Shown: positions 52,488-60,291, counted from the stretch's first letter. The stretch is DNA of 60,291 bases from an uncultured Ectothiorhodospiraceae bacterium (GCA_964443845.1 CAYUFA010000004.1:2706-62996), one strand, 5' to 3'. Numbers and translations are program-made. Notes: generated by a model not told the origin, from the letters alone.

Positions 52488-52551
52488 GGTGTAGGTACAG
52501 CGCAGCAAGGCGGCATAGCAGATCTATTCGCGTAATTACGCGTAATTAATG

Positions 52552-52579
52552 ATAAAGGCGGCTACATGGCCGCCTTTAT
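52552..52579 (-). terminator. Hairpin, probable terminator of the dynamin-like gene
   Basis: ATAAAGGCGGC-TACATG-GCCGCCTTTAT, 8 bp after the stop codon. Confidence 0.65.
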
Positions 52580-52587
52580 TGAGCCGC

Positions 52588-54108
52588 TTACCCGGGAGCA
52601 CGTTTCTCGGGGACGGCGCCGGCAGGCCCGTAGCGGTCCTGCACGTCCGGCTTCGGCGGCGCAACACTGCCGGGATGTTCACTCCTGGCCGCACCGGAAG
52701 GATTGGTAAAGCGGTCGTTCAGAATCTGTACGAAACGGTTGGCATCGGCGATCACGCGGTGCAGGCGATTCCGGTTCAGGCGATTCCAGCCCACCGGATG
52801 GCGCAAAAAGATACTGATCCATGGACGGGTATTGTGCAGGAACGCAAATTTCAGTCGCTCGGTCTCCATGCCTGGCGAGCGATCCCGCTCGATCATCCTG
52901 AGCAACCTGCGCGCGGCGAAGGCCCGGATCCGGAAATGCAACCAGCCAAACAGTGCGGTGCCGATCACAACCAGTCCCAGGTAGCCTGCCATCAGCCAGC
53001 CGGAACCCTGCCCTCCCGGATTGCCCGGGGCAAAGAACCGGCTGGCCAGTGCCAGTACCAGCACGAGCCCGACGGCAACCACGGCATCTCCCCACAGGAC
53101 GTGCCTGCGCCAGATCGTCCGGTACTCCGTGACCGCCGGTACGACCTTCTCCTCGATGTAATGGGAAAGTTTGTCCAGGGTCCCGGTAATCCGGTACGCT
53201 CGTTCCACGCTGACGCCCTGGATCCGCTGCTGGATATCCGCCAGATCGCGATCCCGCTTGGCCTCGTACCGCGCGCGGCGGGAATCGTCGGGAATCGCCA
53301 CGGCCACTTCCGGATTGTAGATGCAGTAAAAGCGCCCGGCGGTCAGCCCTTCCTGGGCCAGCGCCCGCTGCCAGGCCCCGACCACCTCTTCCGGGTTGTC
53401 GTCCCGCGCCGTCGTATCCATCTGGTTGAGTATGTACAGGAACTTGGTAGCGTCGGGGCGGCGGATGGTCTGGCCGACCAGGTGTCTGAGTGTATCCCGC
53501 ATGGCACCCGGCTCCGGATGGCGTGCATCGAAGAACACCAGCACCAGATCGGACAGGTCGATAATGTGATCCGTCAGGCGCAATGTTGCATCGCGCTGGG
53601 AATCGGCATCAAACCCGGGCGAATCGATGAGGATGCGCCCACTGAGCCGCTCGCACGGAATCGTCTTCAGTTGCAGGTAGGCATCGACCCTGCGTCCTTC
53701 CCCGCGGGCGACTTTCTCGATCTCTTCGCTGATCTGGTAAAACGGGAAACGGGGATCGGCGTCCAGGGCCGTCCCCGGCAATGCCTGCGCGTGCCGGCTG
53801 CTCCCGTAGCAGATCACGGTGAACTTGTCATCGACCGCCTGGTTGCCGGTCGACTGCAGTGTTTCGCCCAGGTAATGATTGATAAACGTGGACTTGCCGG
53901 CGGAAAACGTCCCCAGCACCGAGATCATCGGCCACCAGGAAATCTGCGTTGCAAAGGACTGTTCCGAATCCAGCAGCCCCATGGCGCGCCCGACCTGGTC
54001 AAGATGGCGGTAGCTATCCACCGCGGCAACCAGCACCGGGTTTTCCTGCTGCAGATGTTCCTCAAGACTGCGAAGACGTTGTTTGATGGCTTTTCCTGCG
54101 CCAGACAT
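52588..54108 (-). CDS. EHD/dynamin-like P-loop NTPase with two C-terminal TM helices
   Basis: G1 GTFSAGKS, G3 DSPG, G4 NQMD, LPGTALDADPRFPF loop similar to EHD PGNALVVDPxKPF; two hydrophobic helices. Confidence 0.85.
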   Translation of the reverse strand: MSGAGKAIKQRLRSLEEHLQQENPVLVAAVDSYRHLDQVGRAMGLLDSEQSFATQISWWPMISVLGTFSAGKSTFINHYLGETLQSTGNQAVDDKFTVICYGSSRHAQALPGTALDADPRFPFYQISEEIEKVARGEGRRVDAYLQLKTIPCERLSGRILIDSPGFDADSQRDATLRLTDHIIDLSDLVLVFFDARHPEPGAMRDTLRHLVGQTIRRPDATKFLYILNQMDTTARDDNPEEVVGAWQRALAQEGLTAGRFYCIYNPEVAVAIPDDSRRARYEAKRDRDLADIQQRIQGVSVERAYRITGTLDKLSHYIEEKVVPAVTEYRTIWRRHVLWGDAVVAVGLVLVLALASRFFAPGNPGGQGSGWLMAGYLGLVVIGTALFGWLHFRIRAFAARRLLRMIERDRSPGMETERLKFAFLHNTRPWISIFLRHPVGWNRLNRNRLHRVIADANRFVQILNDRFTNPSGAARSEHPGSVAPPKPDVQDRYGPAGAVPEKRAPG

Positions 54109-54207
54109 GGTTTTCTCCAGCCGCCATCCGTGGTTACCCGGGCACTGCCGCCTGCGGCTGACCGGCGGCGCCCGCGGAATGCCGGTCAGCCGGGAACGAT
54201 GTCCCGC

Positions 54208-54711
54208 TCAGAACGGGAACAGCCCGCTGGCCATATTCATCGGTCCGGTTGCATCATGGATGTTGTTTGTCATACGCCCCATGTCGTTCCGGATCTGGTA
54301 CATGGGGACCGACATGACGCCCACGGAATGATTGATACTGTCCATTTTTCCAAGCAGGTGGTTCATGTCGTGCGACCCCGCACCAACGTCATCGGCAATC
54401 GCGGAAAGATTGCCGGACATCCTGGCGACATTTCCGGTCACACTGGTCATGCTGTGGGACATGTCGTTCATCGAGATCACGACTGTTTCCATGCTGCGGG
54501 CCAGGCGGTTGACATCACCGGTTAACATATAGATCAGGTAGAACCCGTATGCCGCCAGGACGATGAACGCCAGCAGGGACGGGTACACCACCAGCTCCCA
54601 GCGCCGTGCACTGGCTTCAAAGGTACGGGCAAACTTGTCCATGCAGGAGGCCATGTCATTGGTAAACACCTCTTCCTTGCCCCCCATGGTTTTCTCCTGA
54701 TTTTCTTTCAT
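54208..54711 (-). CDS. Single-TM membrane protein with Met-rich heptad coiled coil
   Basis: ASARRWELVVYPSLLAFIVLAAYGFYLIY TM, then M/V-rich heptads. Confidence 0.85.
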   Translation of the reverse strand: MKENQEKTMGGKEEVFTNDMASCMDKFARTFEASARRWELVVYPSLLAFIVLAAYGFYLIYMLTGDVNRLARSMETVVISMNDMSHSMTSVTGNVARMSGNLSAIADDVGAGSHDMNHLLGKMDSINHSVGVMSVPMYQIRNDMGRMTNNIHDATGPMNMASGLFPF

Positions 54712-54806
54712 TTATGGACCCTCTCGATAAGACACAGAATCGATCACAGGGATTATATCCGGGCATACACACCCCGATGCCATAAACAAACAGCTACATT
54801 TCCGAA

Positions 54807-55415
54807 TCAGAAATCACCCTTGGCGCCACGATTCATGATATCCAGAATGACTTCCTTGACGTTGTTCGCCTCCTGATAGAGTTCCGGAGGCAGTGATTTC
54901 CCGCCATGAATCATCATGTCCATGTTCATCGTGTAGAGCCAGAGCTTTCCGGTCTTGTCCTCCACCACCGAGATCCTGCAGGGCAGATAGGCGGAATAGG
55001 CTGGGGAATAATCCACCATCTTCGCTCCCGTCGGCGGGTTGCAGAACATGTAGATCTTGAAATAGCGCTGCGGCTTTCCGGTCATCGCTTTCACCTGCTC
55101 TGACAGCGGCAGCTCGCCGACATTCTTGATATTGTGTTCGTTTGCCACAAAGCGCACGGTCTGTTCGACATCCGCCGCAGTGAGACCATCCGCCACCGGG
55201 ATCTTCCAGACCGTCGCCTCGGCAGCATTCCCGGTAGCGAGCAGGGTCTTGATCATGGTCATGTAGACTTCGGGCGCCTGCTTGTCGAACGATGACAAGT
55301 TCCCCAGATCGCGGAAATTCTGCATACCGAAACCAAACGTCAGCGACAGCCAGATGATACCGGCCACCAGAGCAAGGCCCAGCAGAGCGAATAAATTCCA
55401 GATGAGTCTGATCAT
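54807..55415 (-). CDS. DUF302 family protein, membrane-anchored/exported
   Basis: N-terminal hydrophobic helix; YMFCNP and AYLPCRISVVED motifs. Confidence 0.85.
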   Translation of the reverse strand: MIRLIWNLFALLGLALVAGIIWLSLTFGFGMQNFRDLGNLSSFDKQAPEVYMTMIKTLLATGNAAEATVWKIPVADGLTAADVEQTVRFVANEHNIKNVGELPLSEQVKAMTGKPQRYFKIYMFCNPPTGAKMVDYSPAYSAYLPCRISVVEDKTGKLWLYTMNMDMMIHGGKSLPPELYQEANNVKEVILDIMNRGAKGDF

Positions 55416-55444
55416 GATACTGTCTCCCCGTTAATCGGTCTGCA

Positions 55445-56572
55445 TCAAGGGGCGGGAGTGGATGCCGATGCTGCCTTGATCTTCTCTTCAAGGTCGCTTG
55501 CCTGTGTCCCTTTCAAACCGCGGATGACTTCCACCAGCTGCTCCGCCTCGGTGCTCATCCCCTGCTTCACCAGTCGCACGCCGGCTTCATAGTAGGCTGC
55601 GGATGCCTTGTCCCACTCACCCTGTGAGAAATACATGTTACCCAGTTCTCCGTACCAGTCCGGATTGTCGGGGTCCATGCTGATCAGGTCATTGTATTGC
55701 TTCTCCGCGGTTGCATAGTCCCGCAGCCAGTACGATTCACGCGCAGCTTCCAGCACCCGGTAGGCACTGGTCTGCGCGCCAGGCGCGCCTGCCTGGCCCG
55801 GTTCCTGAACCGGCGGCGGGGTTGCAGCAGGTTCCCGGTTCTCCATTTCCGGTTGCGCGGGCCGGGCACTCTCCGGGGTGGCTGCGGCGGTTTCCGGCGC
55901 TGCTGCGGGAGCGGCCGCCGGTGCCGCTTCCTGCGGGCCCGCGGGAACACCAGCCCCGGCAGCGGGTGGCGCGCCGGCGGGCGGCGTGCTGACACTGGTC
56001 GGTGGCGCAGACTCGGTCCCGGAGGGTGCTACGGCAGCGGCCTCCGGCGGTACTGCGGACGGCTCAGCCGGCATCTCCTGCGGTGCCGGTGCCGGTTGTT
56101 GCACCGGCGGCGGCTCCACTGCACCCGAGGTACCGGAGGCACCGGATTCATCCGTTGCCTGCGCGGGCGCTGCAGGCGCATTCATAGCCCCGGCAGCGGC
56201 TGCGCTTTCCTGACGCTCCGCCGTGCTGGCGGTCACCGGCGTCGGCCGGGTGGTGGTCTCTGCATTCCCGGCGCCGCTCCCTGCTGCAGTTGCCGGGCTC
56301 CCGGTCTCCGCTTCGGTCGTCACCACCGCCACACCGGGTTGCGGCATTCCTGCTGGCTCTTCGAGGACCATCGTGGACGAAGGGGCGGTGCTGGTGCTTG
56401 CGGGCGCGGCGGGTGCAGTTGCTGCCTCCTGTTTCCGCGCCGGTCCAGAAGCCAGAAAGTGAGGGAGTTTCAAACCCGGGAAGAGGTCTCCCCTGTAAAT
56501 CAGCCCGAGTGCCAACAGCGCAACCAGCGCCAGTGCAAAACCATGACTGAGTATACGCGCGAACAGGTTCAT
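55445..56572 (-). CDS. Membrane-anchored protein with long Ala/Pro/Glu linker and C-terminal TPR domain
   Basis: AGGAG RBS; N-terminal TM; TPR-like DPDNPDWYGELGNMYFSQGEWDKASAAY. Confidence 0.85.
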   Translation of the reverse strand: MNLFARILSHGFALALVALLALGLIYRGDLFPGLKLPHFLASGPARKQEAATAPAAPASTSTAPSSTMVLEEPAGMPQPGVAVVTTEAETGSPATAAGSGAGNAETTTRPTPVTASTAERQESAAAAGAMNAPAAPAQATDESGASGTSGAVEPPPVQQPAPAPQEMPAEPSAVPPEAAAVAPSGTESAPPTSVSTPPAGAPPAAGAGVPAGPQEAAPAAAPAAAPETAAATPESARPAQPEMENREPAATPPPVQEPGQAGAPGAQTSAYRVLEAARESYWLRDYATAEKQYNDLISMDPDNPDWYGELGNMYFSQGEWDKASAAYYEAGVRLVKQGMSTEAEQLVEVIRGLKGTQASDLEEKIKAASASTPAP

Positions 56573-56589
56573 CGTTCTTGCTCCTGAAA

Positions 56590-57252
56590 TTAGTTCAATT
56601 GCCCGACGACTTCCGGATAGAGTGCTGCAGCAAGCCCCCGGAACTCGTGCGCCGCCTTGCTGCGCGGCCACATTTCGAATACGGCCAGCCCTTCACTGAG
56701 TGAACGCCTGAAATTGGTCCGCATTTTAAGACACTGGGGCATGACCGTGTCGATGCCGGACAACATGCGCAGCGCCTCCTCCGTCTCCTGCGTCTCGCGG
56801 ATGGACTGGTTGGTATCCGCACGATTCACAAATGCCAGTGTTCTGTGTGCACCGTTGAGCCTGATCATTTCCAGATCCGGTCCGAGGATATGCAGGAATC
56901 TCTGGGTCGCCCAGACATCCGCCTGGCTGGGCGGTACCGGTATCAGGATCCGGTCTGCCGCAGCCATGGCCTCCTTCATGGCCGCCATGTTTGCAGCACC
57001 GACATCCACCAGCACTTCACATCCGGCGTGTGCGGTAAGCTGCTCGCCGAGTACCGCCCGTACCGAGTGGATTTCAAGGTCGGGCTTGTTACCGATCTCC
57101 CGGCGCAGCATTGCAAGATCACTGAAGGTACATTGCGGGTCAAGGTCATATCCGATGACCTTGCGCCCGTTACTTTCCAGCCACACGGCGAGATTGAATG
57201 CCACTGTGCTTTTACCGGAGCCACCCTTCAGATTTGCGATTACCGTGATCAT
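56590..57252 (-). CDS. Orphan ParA/MinD-family ATPase
   Basis: NLKGGSGKST deviant Walker A, DLDPQ, ADRILIPVPPS; no parB nearby. Confidence 0.92.
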   Translation of the reverse strand: MITVIANLKGGSGKSTVAFNLAVWLESNGRKVIGYDLDPQCTFSDLAMLRREIGNKPDLEIHSVRAVLGEQLTAHAGCEVLVDVGAANMAAMKEAMAAADRILIPVPPSQADVWATQRFLHILGPDLEMIRLNGAHRTLAFVNRADTNQSIRETQETEEALRMLSGIDTVMPQCLKMRTNFRRSLSEGLAVFEMWPRSKAAHEFRGLAAALYPEVVGQLN

Positions 57253-57314
57253 TTTGCCAGCTCTGCCCCCTCCTGCTGTGACTGTCGAAACGAGTCGCGA
57301 TCCGGCAGAAACCC

Positions 57315-58067
57315 TTACTTTTCAGGTTGTTGTGGAGCGGTGCGCTCGGTATAGCCCGCCGGCACGGAAAACAGGCTGTCCGGCTGCCTGCCCAGCTTGA
57401 TGTTGGTCAGGTTGCGCGTGAACCCGCCTGGCTGCTGTACGCGAATATTCATGTTCAGTACCGGATCATACCATTGCAGGGATGTCTGGCTCTGCCCGTC
57501 ACCGGAATGGCTGGTAATTTCCCATTTCTCGGTCTTGCGTCCGTTCACGACTTCCGTGCCCAGCATGCGCATCTCCATGGATGATCCGTCAGGCATCTGC
57601 TGGCGGATGGGAATCTTGCGCTGGTCGTCCAGCCAGAACACCAGGGCACCGGTCTGGCCGGCCCTGGTAATCTCCCATTTGTGTGTTTTTCTGCCGTCGA
57701 TGACCTCCGGACCGTCGTCCTTGCACACGAGATTCTGCATGTTTGCGCAGGGATTGTCATTGGCTGCCGGGGGCGGCTTCATCATGTCTGACCGTGCCGC
57801 CGCCCTGCGCATGAAAGATTTATCAGCCGGATTGATGATGATAGCCTGCTGCTTGTCCAGATCGATGATCTGGATGAACTGCTGGCCGTTCATTTCGAAA
57901 TCGGTTCGCATCCGGTCATGCCCCATGTACAGGTGTCCCTTGTGCTCACCATACTGGGGGTGAGACTCGACGGTATCCGCGCTGAATTCAGCTGCTGCAC
58001 GCGCACAAACCGGAATAACGAGGATTGCCAGTAACGCCCATGTAAGATTGATCAGATTGGTTCGCAT
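57315..58067 (-). CDS. Exported DUF4412-like protein with internal duplication
   Basis: Signal peptide, AEFSAD, duplicated GxEVxxGRKTxKWEIT, C-terminal PDSLFSVPAGY. Confidence 0.8.
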   Translation of the reverse strand: MRTNLINLTWALLAILVIPVCARAAAEFSADTVESHPQYGEHKGHLYMGHDRMRTDFEMNGQQFIQIIDLDKQQAIIINPADKSFMRRAAARSDMMKPPPAANDNPCANMQNLVCKDDGPEVIDGRKTHKWEITRAGQTGALVFWLDDQRKIPIRQQMPDGSSMEMRMLGTEVVNGRKTEKWEITSHSGDGQSQTSLQWYDPVLNMNIRVQQPGGFTRNLTNIKLGRQPDSLFSVPAGYTERTAPQQPEK

Positions 58068-58121
58068 GTCATGATCCGAGAATGTCGATTGTGTATATCA
58101 AGCCTGAGTAATCTGGTGAAT

Positions 58122-58155
58122 AAAAAAGAGTGAGCCGGCCAATGCCGGCTCACTC
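58122..58155 (-). terminator. Strong intrinsic terminator of the sulfur globule protein gene
   Basis: 12-bp perfect stem GAGTGAGCCGGC / GCCGGCTCACTC followed by a T run on the minus strand. Confidence 0.9.
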
Positions 58156-58164
58156 CATGCCGGT

Positions 58165-58548
58165 TTACTTACTGGCCGCCGGAGCTGCCGGTGCCGCTAC
58201 GGGTGGGGCCCCGTACGGGACGCCATACGGGCCACCACCATAAGGTCCGCCATAGCCGTAAGGCCCGCCGCCATAGCCATACGGACCATAGCCATAATAA
58301 CCATTTCCGTACCCGTAGCCACGCCCGTAGCCACGCCCGTAGCCATGACCATGACCCGAACCGCTAAAGTTCATGTTGAAGTCACCACTGCCATCGCCAT
58401 CGAACGGACCCCAGTCATTGCCCCAGCCATTACCCCAGTTGTTACCACCCCAGGGTCCCCAGCCACCCCAGGCATGTGCAGCCGAAAATGGTACTGCGAA
58501 AAGTCCGGCAATTGCAGCCGCACACAACGTTTTCCTTGCTTTGTTCAT
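58165..58548 (-). CDS. Sulfur globule envelope protein (SgpA/SgpB, CV1/CV2-like)
   Basis: Sec signal ending AHA-W, Trp/Gly-rich start, [18 protein letters not shown] and GPYGYG repeats, Ala/Pro tail, as in Allochromatium vinosum SgpA; GGAG RBS. Confidence 0.85.
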
Positions 58549-58982
58549 TTAACAATCTCCTGAAAGTGCGACCATTGAATATTCAGTCGCGGTAACTCCC
58601 TGATTTGAATTGAACCATGTACTTCAGGGATAAAGTAACACAGCATCGGCAACCCGGATTCGCCGGGGCAACCAATTCAGTAGCCATTCCGATCATTCGG
58701 AAAGGCACGGATCTGACACGGTCACAACAGGGCTTACCCGCTCAGTAACCACTGCCACTCTGCGCGAACGATATGTACCCCGGCCCGGACGCACCATGGC
58801 GACGGTGTTTTCCTTCCCGTCATCCACGTTCTGCCGGAACCGCAATGATCGCCGCAATCGCTGTACCAGGGCACGGGGCGCACAGCATGCAGCGTACCTG
58901 ATGGCCGGTGGCAGCAACGGCATGCTGGAATCTTCCGTGCCCGGAAGAATTTCCTGGCTGACGGGAACCGGCAGCATCCCGG

Positions 58983-59711
58983 TTACCAGGCATAGCCGGG
59001 TTCCATGAGTCCCGGGTATGCTCCGTCGTAACCGAACCAGGGAGCCGGTGCATAGCCATAGCCCGGGGCGCCCCAGGGAGGAGGTTCAGCCGGCTTCTGC
59101 CCTGCACTGGCGCCCTGGGAGTTCCCTGTGCTGTTGCCGCTGTATTCACCCCATGGCCGTTGCACATAGGTGGCCGGTGGCGCAACCGGGTATTGGTACG
59201 AATAGGGTTGCTGAGCGGGCGGCTGTACGGGTTGCTGTGGATATCCATAGGTCTGCTGGGGAACCTGTTGCAGGCGGTAAATCCGCGATTGCGGCGCAGG
59301 CACGTTCCATGGCGTGACCTGCTGCCCGGTTCCAGGGGCAGGATTCAGGTTGGTCGTCCCGCCGGTCTGGCCCGTGAAATATCCGTTTGCCGGCACCAGA
59401 ATCCAGTTTTGTGGAACGCCTGCGGATGGCTGCGCCGGGTTTGCCTGAAAACCGGCTGATGCCCCCCCCCATTGTCCGGTACCGGGCTGCCCGGGTTCCG
59501 GGGCGAACCTCAGCTGTGGCTGCTGGACCTTGGGGGACGGATACCAGTCAACCGCGACCGGGGGCGGATTCTTCTGGGTGGATGGCGCGGGTGCAGCCTG
59601 TTTCATGTCGTCCTCACTCGAGCCACACCCGTACAGGACGGAACATGCCAAAAAGATTATAAATACAGAAACCAGTCGTGTTGGAAGAAATGACCCTGAA
59701 TCCCGTTTCAT
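58983..59711 (-). CDS. Pro/Gln/Tyr/Gly-rich low-complexity lipoprotein
   Basis: Lipobox LYG-C; disordered P/Q/Y/W-rich body. Confidence 0.75.
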   Translation of the reverse strand: MKRDSGSFLPTRLVSVFIIFLACSVLYGCGSSEDDMKQAAPAPSTQKNPPPVAVDWYPSPKVQQPQLRFAPEPGQPGTGQWGGASAGFQANPAQPSAGVPQNWILVPANGYFTGQTGGTTNLNPAPGTGQQVTPWNVPAPQSRIYRLQQVPQQTYGYPQQPVQPPAQQPYSYQYPVAPPATYVQRPWGEYSGNSTGNSQGASAGQKPAEPPPWGAPGYGYAPAPWFGYDGAYPGLMEPGYAW

Positions 59712-59742
59712 GGTTCAAGGGAGCGGATCGGGAAACGCTGGA

Positions 59743-60291
59743 TCACCAGCCGTTTCCCGGATAGGGCGGACGCCCGTACATCCCCTCGTAAGCCGGTGGC
59801 GGCGGCACCTCCGGCTCTTCGTTACTGCGCTGCGGGTTGTAGTAGCCGGGCGGTGGAACCGCGTTTTGGGTACCGCGGTACCTCTGCTGGTAGTAGGGAT
59901 ACCTCGGCGCCGGGTAGTTACGCATCGGCGGAGGCGGGTATGCCCTGCCGTATCCATGCAGTGGTGGCTGATATTCCGGCGGCATTTGCCCGCTGCTTCC
60001 CGGGTGCGGCTCACCGTATTCCGTTTCCTCGCCTGCAGCAGGTGGTCCATAGGGCCGCGCGGTTTCCAGCGGTGACAGCTCCGTCTCAGCCGCAGCGGGA
60101 ATGCCGGCAGCCGGGGCATTCCCCGGAACGGATGTCGCAATCTCCGGTGCACCGGGTGCTTGCACGGATACAGGGGATTCGGCTGTCGCAGATGGTTCTA
60201 CCGGTGCCGGTGATTCCGCTGCTGCAACCGGTTTTTCCGGTGCCGGTGGTTCCTCCGCTGCAACCGGTGCTTCCGGTGCATATTGTTCCTG
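59743..60291 (-). CDS. Pro/Ala/Glu-rich then Pro/Tyr-rich protein, C-terminal part (starts beyond window end)
   Basis: Frame open to the window edge; 12-aa repeats APEAPVAAEEPP/APEKPVAAAESP/APVEPSATAESP; C-terminal EVPPPPAY. Confidence 0.7.
   Translation of the reverse strand, partial: QEQYAPEAPVAAEEPPAPEKPVAAAESPAPVEPSATAESPVSVQAPGAPEIATSVPGNAPAAGIPAAAETELSPLETARPYGPPAAGEETEYGEPHPGSSGQMPPEYQPPLHGYGRAYPPPPMRNYPAPRYPYYQQRYRGTQNAVPPPGYYNPQRSNEEPEVPPPPAYEGMYGRPPYPGNGW

Follow-up and report, generated by a model that had tools for sequence, protein, structure and literature searches.

In purple sulfur bacteria, sulfur globules can account for a third of the dry weight, and the sections of the Allochromatium vinosum study drawn on here describe the globule proteins SgpA-D, whose genes form separate transcription units with no accessory machinery described; SgpD localizes to globules, and sgpD adjoins a gene for a "hydrophobic/amphiphilic exporter" (PMC10386293). 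Here we analyzed a stretch of 60,291 nucleotides from an uncultured Ectothiorhodospiraceae bacterium (GCA_964443845.1 CAYUFA010000004.1:2706-62996), the whole of which is referred to as the window, and in which positions 52588 to 60291 carry nine co-oriented genes, one of them for an SgpA-type sulfur globule protein (SGP). An original prediction, made from the sequence, had proposed that these genes could encode machinery that shapes the membrane around sulfur globules and spaces them in the cell. In contrast to the sgp genes of A. vinosum, the sgp gene of this locus lies inside a conserved multigene module. We found that these nine make up the distal two thirds of a module that spans about 17 kb and comprises about 12 genes, and that this module is nearly restricted to sulfur oxidizers carrying dsr or sgp genes; judged by gene order and co-occurrence, it is a strong candidate for the machinery that builds sulfur globules. 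To our knowledge, coat proteins are the only globule components known. In agreement with the original prediction that no such system had been described, a literature search combining sulfur globules with terms for the module components, namely dynamin, ParA, DUF302, resistance-nodulation-division (RND), DUF4412, tetratricopeptide repeat (TPR), and sterol carrier protein 2 (SCP2), retrieved no description of the module.

All nine open reading frames (ORFs) were recovered on the minus strand, where the original prediction had placed them, and their Pfam matches agree with the types claimed; the unit to which they belong proved larger than the cluster it had drawn. The contig extends beyond the window, and upstream of gene 1, the outermost of the nine, lie three further genes of the same strand, which encode an RND permease, a membrane fusion protein (MFP, the adaptor), and an SCP2-fold protein. 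For the locus survey, one genome per species was scanned for relatives of the dynamin-like protein encoded by gene 9, which gave 554 stretches; the best 80 loci were analyzed, and 81 were tabulated with our own locus included, many of them truncated at contig ends. Genes in the loci were called by a codon model trained on our own genome, and the called proteins were then clustered. The 80 loci come from metagenome-assembled genomes labeled Sedimenticola, Thiodiazotropha, Thiohalobacter, Thiogranum, Chromatiaceae, Thiohalomonadaceae, and Escarpia symbiont, and together with our own locus they display the order SCP2-MFP-RND-variable genes-DUF4412-ParA-TPR-(DUF302)-coiled coil. Two arrangements were found for the dynamin-like gene, which stands either 3' of the coiled-coil gene or divergently beside the SCP2-like gene. 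The whole gene order is kept within the genus of the source organism, and the module order recurs in further families beyond the 80 loci. Among the 81 tabulated loci, dynamin-like genes were counted in 74, RND genes in 45, coiled-coil and MFP genes in 42 each, ParA genes in 38, DUF4412 genes in 28, TPR genes in 27, SCP2-like genes in 26, and DUF302 genes in 18. RND and MFP count among the most conserved members; DUF302, TPR, DUF4412, and the NTPase gene are each absent from some loci, and DUF302 is a facultative member. DUF4412, where present, always lies between the low-complexity genes and ParA/TPR.

The same module was found in a second class of the phylum, in 37 genomes of 13 families, where the order is MFP-RND-low-complexity genes-DUF4412-Sgp-ParA-coiled coil; no TPR or dynamin-like matches were seen in these second-class modules. 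All four second-class carriers tested possess dsrB. The tie of Sgp-type proteins to their neighbors, which the original prediction had seen in one genome, is thus borne out by an order kept across many families and in two classes.

The slot between the RND gene and DUF4412/ParA contains, in nearly every locus, one to four proteins with signal-like N termini and an extreme Pro/Arg/Tyr/Gly/Gln composition. In our own locus it begins with gene 1 (59743 to 60291, minus strand), the C-terminal part of a secreted Pro/Tyr/Ala-rich low-complexity protein, and gene 2 (58983 to 59711, minus strand), which encodes a lipoprotein-like secreted Pro/Gln/Gly/Tyr-rich low-complexity protein; both proteins end in Trp, and neither gave a family match in Pfam or NCBIfam. 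Homologues of gene 2 (cluster c42) occur in loci L037, L039, and L040. These are followed by gene 3 (58165 to 58548, minus strand), which encodes the SgpA-type protein, comparable to SgpA-D of A. vinosum, and matches PF17228 with 58.7 bits against a cutoff of 26.7; a signal-like N terminus is visible. PF17228 members occupy the slot in our own genus, in Thiohalobacter-type loci, where they lie upstream of DUF4412, and in the second class, where a PF17228 gene (64.9 bits) stands between DUF4412 and ParA. Elsewhere, the slot is filled by other signal peptide-bearing Pro/Arg/Tyr/Gly-rich proteins. As far as SgpD is characterized in the sections cited above, the slot proteins resemble it in having a signal peptide and regularly spaced prolines; for genes 1 and 2 this likeness is one of description, and the exporter gene next to sgpD is likened to the RND gene by its description as well.

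Linkage was also seen in the profile set described below. There, with distances taken from the match-position tables, a PF17228 gene lies within 5 kb of a dynamin-like gene in 10 genomes of 9 families, against about 0.5 such genomes expected by chance, as we estimated from roughly three sgp genes per 3-Mb genome. The gene neighborhood check suggested by the original prediction thus placed PF17228 genes within the module in these 10 genomes as well as in the second-class case.

Phylogenetic profiles were drawn from 400 genomes of the class, at least 90% complete and spread evenly over about 213 families; one genome, G271, is unscored for the dynamin-like protein and dsrB, so that totals are 400 for these and 401 for SGP and the coiled-coil protein. 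Matches were obtained for the dynamin-like protein in 83 of 400 genomes, for PF17228 in 55 of 401, and for dsrB in 125 of 400. The coiled-coil family was matched in 78 of 401 genomes, and removal of the six weakest matches (E > 1e-9) before counting left 72 at E < 1e-9. As a marker, the coiled-coil protein tracks SGP closely: in 400 genomes, both occur in 52, the coiled coil alone in 20, SGP alone in 3, and neither in 325. The original prediction had called for this comparison, and the coiled coil was present in 52 of the 55 SGP-positive genomes against 20 of the 345 SGP-negative ones. The association persists when only dsrB-positive genomes are considered (both, 48; coiled coil only, 18; SGP only, 3; neither, 56), and by our reading of the tables the coiled coil occurs in 33 of the 34 families with SGP. 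Furthermore, dsrB was found in 66 of the 72 coiled-coil carriers and SGP in 4 of the other 6, which brings those with SGP or dsrB to 70 of 72. The dynamin-like protein gave a mixed picture. It is present in 49 of the 55 SGP-positive genomes (both, 49; dynamin-like only, 34; SGP only, 6; neither, 311), but it also occurs alone in genomes without dsrB, sgp, and the coiled coil; 25 carriers lack the coiled coil, and 20 of these lack dsrB. Four unpublished genomes (G092, G170, G314, and G324) are positive for the dynamin-like protein and negative for SGP, dsrB, and the coiled coil; without them its tally is 79/396, and the conclusions are unchanged. Because of the synteny in two classes, the embedded sgp genes, and these profiles, the link of the module to sulfur globule biology is well supported by comparison.

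The coiled-coil protein is encoded by gene 8 (54208 to 54711, minus strand), which consists of a transmembrane (TM) segment and Met-rich helical repeats and whose Pfam matches all fall below cutoff, DUF948 among them (21.9 bits against 37.2). Its relatives share a juxtamembrane ARRWE motif, the TM segment, a variable number of Met-rich repeats, in which His is not conserved, and a conserved C terminus with Pro-Trp/Phe. The protein defines a family of its own, and no other marker of the module is as sulfur-specific. In 28 genomes of 18 families its gene is found less than 1 kb from the dynamin-like gene, and in two more genomes it lies 7 to 10 kb away and divergent; where the NTPase gene is absent, the coiled coil adjoins ParA. 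Paralogues lie beside sgp genes in G296, G111, G344, and G157. Others were noticed about 7 kb from dsrB (G124:C25, G128:C122, and G295:C201), a hint that the family is more broadly tied to the dsr region. Our own genome contains a second strong paralogue (168.9 bits) at G000:C136:1825-2448, whose neighbors are a radical-SAM-like gene and a gene for a 580-amino-acid (aa) exported protein.

Two further genes encode putative inner-membrane-anchored proteins. The product of gene 6 (55445 to 56572, minus strand) has a TM segment at its N terminus, then a linker rich in Pro and Ala, and at its C terminus a TPR region (TPR_19, 29.1 against 25). Across loci, the linker is variable, of low complexity, and follows the local composition, while a TPR-like domain of about 100 aa at the C terminus is conserved. 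In architecture, but not otherwise, the protein is reminiscent of TonB and TolA, which likewise have an N-terminal TM anchor, an extended Pro/Ala-rich spacer, and a small binding domain at the C terminus; it differs from them in the TPR-like nature of that domain, and no ExbBD or TolQR genes are found in the module. Gene 7 (54807 to 55415, minus strand) encodes a DUF302 protein (PF03625, 57.6 bits against 23) that begins with a TM segment or signal anchor. Judged by the distribution of charges, the TPR, DUF302, and Met-rich parts probably face the periplasm. The exported DUF4412 protein is the product of gene 4 (57315 to 58067, minus strand; PF14371, 39.6 bits against 21.6), which has an N-terminal signal-like sequence. 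Trp is the last residue in 16 of the 55 slot proteins, compared with 18 of 1,095 other ORFs, and 36 of 42 coiled-coil proteins end in Pro-Trp; this residue may be a recognition signal, perhaps for the TPR domain. In L052, L054, L061, and L072, FRP-type motifs are common to secreted proteins and to the TPR-protein linker of the same lineage, and the linker seems to share the composition of the local coat proteins.

Small ATPases with a deviant Walker A motif position carboxysomes (McdAB) and chemoreceptor arrays (PpfA/ParC), act in plasmid partition (ParF-ParG), or accompany cellulose synthase (BcsQ). ParB, ParG, and McdB act on their ParA ATPases through a disordered tail with a short basic peptide. 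Gene 5 (56590 to 57252, minus strand) encodes a small ParA/ParF-like ATPase of this kind, with matches to CbiA, AAA_31, and MipZ over their cutoffs and the deviant motif KGGSGKST at residues 9 to 16. Neither of two familiar roles suits it. Its score on the partition equivalog NF041546 is 118.1 bits against a cutoff of 180, and no centromere-binding partner or ParB/ParG-like gene was found among the module genes, so that the defining features of a plasmid partition protein fail; in contrast to McdAB, its neighbors are DUF4412 and the TPR protein, no McdB-like gene is found in the module, and the conserved set contains no carboxysome genes.

The RND permease has a variable, low-complexity, disordered cytoplasmic tail of about 270 aa at its C-terminal side that ends, at or near the C terminus, in an invariant RRGIRLK-type motif. 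Among 31 loci with the RND gene and the downstream end of the module, motif and ParA occur together in 24, the motif stands alone, no ParA having been called, in 2, ParA never occurs without the motif, and 5 show neither; the two exceptions, L039 and L074, are gene-calling misses, since tblastn finds ParA in both, where the codon model had overlooked it. In further families, motif and ParA occur together in G106, G071, G357, and G096, and both are missing from G033, G190, and G327; in the second class, all six loci with the 3' end of the RND gene have both. In total, 36 loci have tail motif and ParA, 8 from at least three families have neither, and none is discordant. This co-variation points to the RND pump as the partner of ParA, either as its cargo or as its regulator, and not to the TPR and coiled-coil proteins among the neighbors whose cytoplasmic tails the original prediction had proposed to model with ParA. 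As in the known positioning systems, the candidate partner would offer a disordered region with a short basic peptide; unlike in those systems, the cargo would be an inner-membrane transporter.

The pump itself stands apart from the described tripartite and lipid-handling RND systems (AcrAB-TolC, CusCBA, HpnN, and MmpL), with which it shares an ACR_tran permease and an RND_mfp adaptor. The permease, a protein of 1,360 aa encoded on the minus strand upstream of gene 1 and outside the window, meets the ACR_tran superfamily model and scores below every NCBIfam subfamily cutoff, with 443.8 bits against 1,250 for RND_permease_2, 277.5 against 940 for TIGR00915, and 238.2 against 701 for TIGR00914 (CusA/CzcA). 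Membership among the HAE1 multidrug or CusA-CzcA permeases was rejected on these scores, and the defining features of a CusCBA pump fail as well. The adaptor gene (L028:5725-6864, minus strand) matches RND_mfp and the CusB/HlyD barrel-sandwich domain. In classical pumps, the alpha-hairpin tip of the adaptor contacts the outer-membrane channel; in this family, about 35 additional residues that resemble GGMGxPNLFDQMFTRP are inserted at the tip (about positions 120 to 160 of the adaptor) and conserved. Met-rich surfaces occur on the MFP tip as well as on the coiled-coil protein. No outer-membrane factor gene is found in the conserved gene set of the loci. The unit starts, upstream of the MFP gene and outside the window, with a minus-strand gene for a 131-aa protein that has no sequence-profile family match; its AlphaFold model (pLDDT 92.9) has an SCP2 fold, matching 2cx7 (Thermus SCP2) with a TM-score of 0.78 and an E value of 4e-7, and UbiJ-SCP2 was also matched. 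PDB sequence searches with the DUF4412, DUF302, and SCP2-like proteins gave nothing useful. The tail with its RRGIRLK motif, the insertion at the adaptor tip, the SCP2-fold lead gene, and the lack of an outer-membrane factor in the set distinguish the module from the RND systems named above.

Dynamin-type proteins remodel membranes, and EHDs shape the membrane at caveolae. Gene 9 (52588 to 54108, minus strand) encodes an EHD-like dynamin-family NTPase of 506 aa (PF00350 Dynamin_N, 54.6 against 27). Its best PDB matches by sequence are EHD4 and EHD2 (E value of 2.6e-6), and by fold the same two are again the top hits, EHD4 being best (E value of 1.1e-11; TM-score to the target, 0.61), followed by bacterial dynamin-like proteins and mitofusins; an ESM Atlas search returned only "dynamin family, Pseudomonadota." An AlphaFold model built on a 41-sequence alignment (pLDDT 82.9) places a long helical hairpin over two hydrophobic segments, followed by helices at 414 to 426 and 443 to 467 and a disordered end, so that the model gives the protein a TM hairpin of helices and, on the cytoplasmic side, a C-terminal helix. 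The EHD/dynamin-like NTPase with two TM helices of the original prediction is in keeping with both the matches and the model. GxxxxGKS and DSPG are invariant in the 41 homologues, as is the G4 motif, which reads NQxD instead of the usual N/TKxD and may confer an unusual nucleotide preference. In EHD2/EHD4, BDLP, Campylobacter DLP1/2, IniA, LeoA, and mitofusins, as in gene 9, a helical domain comes after the dynamin-type G domain, and the membrane hairpin is found in mitofusins and BDLP. Gene 9 differs from the EHDs in its short length, its true TM hairpin, its NQxD motif, and the lack of an EH domain, for which no Pfam match was found; it also differs from known dynamin pairs in being paired with a Met-rich membrane protein and not with a second dynamin. 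In the sections of a Thiomargarita preprint drawn on here, dynamin homologues are only listed as candidates for vesicle formation. The NTPase is a frequent but facultative member, dispensable to the module. The coiled-coil gene adjoins it in 18 families, in line with its claimed place in the cluster; some modules lack the NTPase gene, and elsewhere the NTPase gene stands alone. In G033, module and dynamin-like gene lie at separate places, and in seven loci the gene has another, glnD-linked context.

A few features of the window remain to be described. An intrinsic terminator-like hairpin lies directly 3' of sgp at 58127 to 58156 on the minus strand and has a 13-bp stem with nine G-C pairs and then a T-run, as the original prediction had noted. 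Downstream of the nine-gene set are spoT and housekeeping genes. On the plus strand, a 658-aa ORF at 52549-54525 was rejected as a gene, being an antisense artifact of the dynamin-like gene; such antisense frames are typical of G+C-rich DNA and mislead simple ORF picking. Both the window end and a run of N interrupt gene 1, whose signal peptide-bearing start lies farther along the contig. The run of N, either an assembly gap or withheld bases, at about 62990-63100 of G000:C4 (about 990-1100 of L028), falls in a Pro/Ala-rich repeat of this gene, of which length and repeat number are not readable. In the Thiohalobacter-type loci L059, L060, L066, L095, and L096, a conserved protein of 284 to 498 aa (cluster c31) without a Pfam match is encoded on the opposite strand between RND and sgp.

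On balance, we lean towards the reading that the module forms an inner-membrane platform on which the protein coat of periplasmic globules would be laid down and held. The RND-MFP pair, fed by the cytoplasmic SCP2-like carrier, would move a hydrophobic species into the periplasmic deposit, handing it to the deposit in place of an outer-membrane channel. Binding of the coat or the sulfur surface would fall to the anchored TPR, DUF302, and Met-rich proteins and to the periplasmic DUF4412 protein. With the basic peptide at the pump's C terminus as its docking site, ParA would distribute the platform sites over the nucleoid, and the EHD-like NTPase, where present, would act from the cytoplasmic side on the membrane wrapping the growing globule. 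Membrane shaping and globule spacing, as envisaged by the original prediction, would thus be among the tasks that the module may perform. A more detailed version, which we offer tentatively and would not expect to hold in every part, sees in the module a dedicated organelle-building system: ParA would grip RRGIRLK to position the RND-MFP pair, the SCP2-fed pump would dock on the globule through its remodeled adaptor tip and load hydrophobic sulfur or capping material, the coat proteins would be those encoded in the unit, the TPR and Met-rich proteins would tether the coat, and the EHD-like NTPase would shape a membrane pocket.

Several observations weigh against the platform reading. Because the genomes are related, the 2x2 tables overstate independence and their Fisher values overstate significance, and 18 dsrB-positive genomes have the coiled coil without a PF17228 match; the module could track lineage or a dsr-type sulfur-oxidizing lifestyle and not globules as such. 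Our own genome has seven PF17228 matches, six of them over cutoff, and six of the seven lie outside the module. The strong terminator parts sgp from the genes downstream of it. The topology proposed for the TPR, DUF302, and coiled-coil proteins follows from charge rules only, and RND pumps normally export outward. G106 and the complete genome G071 have the whole module with no dynamin-like gene found by this query, and in G205 and G149 the dynamin-like gene occurs alone, no dsrB, sgp, or coiled coil being found. Finally, in the sections cited of the A. vinosum study, the gene after sgpD does not respond to sulfide or thiosulfate (PMC10386293), which would count if that locus is homologous to ours.

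The module might instead move sulfur without building the globule. The RND-MFP pair and the SCP2-like protein would then carry a hydrophobic sulfur species or its organic carrier back and forth among membrane, globule, and cytoplasm, either to deposit sulfur or to mobilize it towards the Dsr system, with the other module proteins as accessories and the sgp genes as neighbors through a shared regulon. Such a role would suit the SCP2 fold of the first gene, the high conservation of RND and MFP, the Met-rich surfaces of MFP tip and coiled coil, the presence of dsrB in 66 of the 72 coiled-coil carriers, and the paralogues near dsrB in G124, G128, and G295. It would leave ParA, the EHD-like NTPase, and the structural-looking secreted proteins unexplained; moreover, no rhodanese, DsrE, or TusA domain was found among the scanned module genes, and we know of no import by RND pumps. 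We regard it as unlikely. Somewhat less probable still is that the module serves efflux or stress in the envelope and has nothing to do with globules, for instance as an exporter of Cu/Ag-type metals or of hydrophobes that is common in sulfur oxidizers by ancestry and habitat. The RND-MFP pair with its CusB/HlyD-type adaptor and the weak CusA/CzcA match of the permease (238 bits) speak for it, as does the resemblance of Met- and His-rich periplasmic repeats to metal-binding proteins. The permease, however, scores better on multidrug-type models (443.8 bits) and lies far below the CusA/CzcA cutoff of 701, and His is not conserved in the Met-rich repeats; further points against it are the PF17228 genes embedded in the unit in two classes, the presence of the coiled-coil marker in 20 of the 345 SGP-negative genomes, and the lack of an outer-membrane factor gene in the conserved set.

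We give the least credence to the view that there is no joint function and that independent small units are merely adjacent: a partition-type ParA, a pump, the sgp genes, and a pair of dynamin-like and coiled-coil proteins for membrane repair, comparable to other bacterial dynamins. The terminator after sgp would be expected under it, and so would the NTPase found alone elsewhere and the loci that lack DUF302, TPR, DUF4412, or the NTPase gene. What it fails to explain is an order that survives two arrangements and the split between two classes, the co-variation of ParA with the RND tail, which joins two supposedly separate units, and the position of the coiled-coil gene, next to the NTPase gene in 18 families and next to ParA in modules that lack that gene.

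The stretch is contained in salt-marsh metagenomes. Two metatranscriptome libraries gave contigs with at least 99% identity to it, by which the dynamin-like, coiled-coil, TPR, ParA/DUF4412, and sgp genes are partly covered; this evidence is weak, because DNA carry-over is possible and the contigs show neither level nor strand, and regions lacking such contigs are uninformative. In the parts of the literature consulted, no machinery is named for the nucleation, feeding, periplasmic retention, sizing, placement, or emptying of globules. We know of no precedent for a ParA whose cargo is an RND transporter or for a prokaryotic EHD-like NTPase of a storage compartment, and the literature search found none.

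Globules play a central part in how sulfur is cycled in sediments and in animal symbioses, and the module yields about 12 conserved candidate genes for globule machinery, a concrete list with testable predictions. If the platform reading is true, a ParA ATPase with an RND transporter as its cargo would be new, and so would a prokaryotic EHD-like NTPase tied to a storage compartment.

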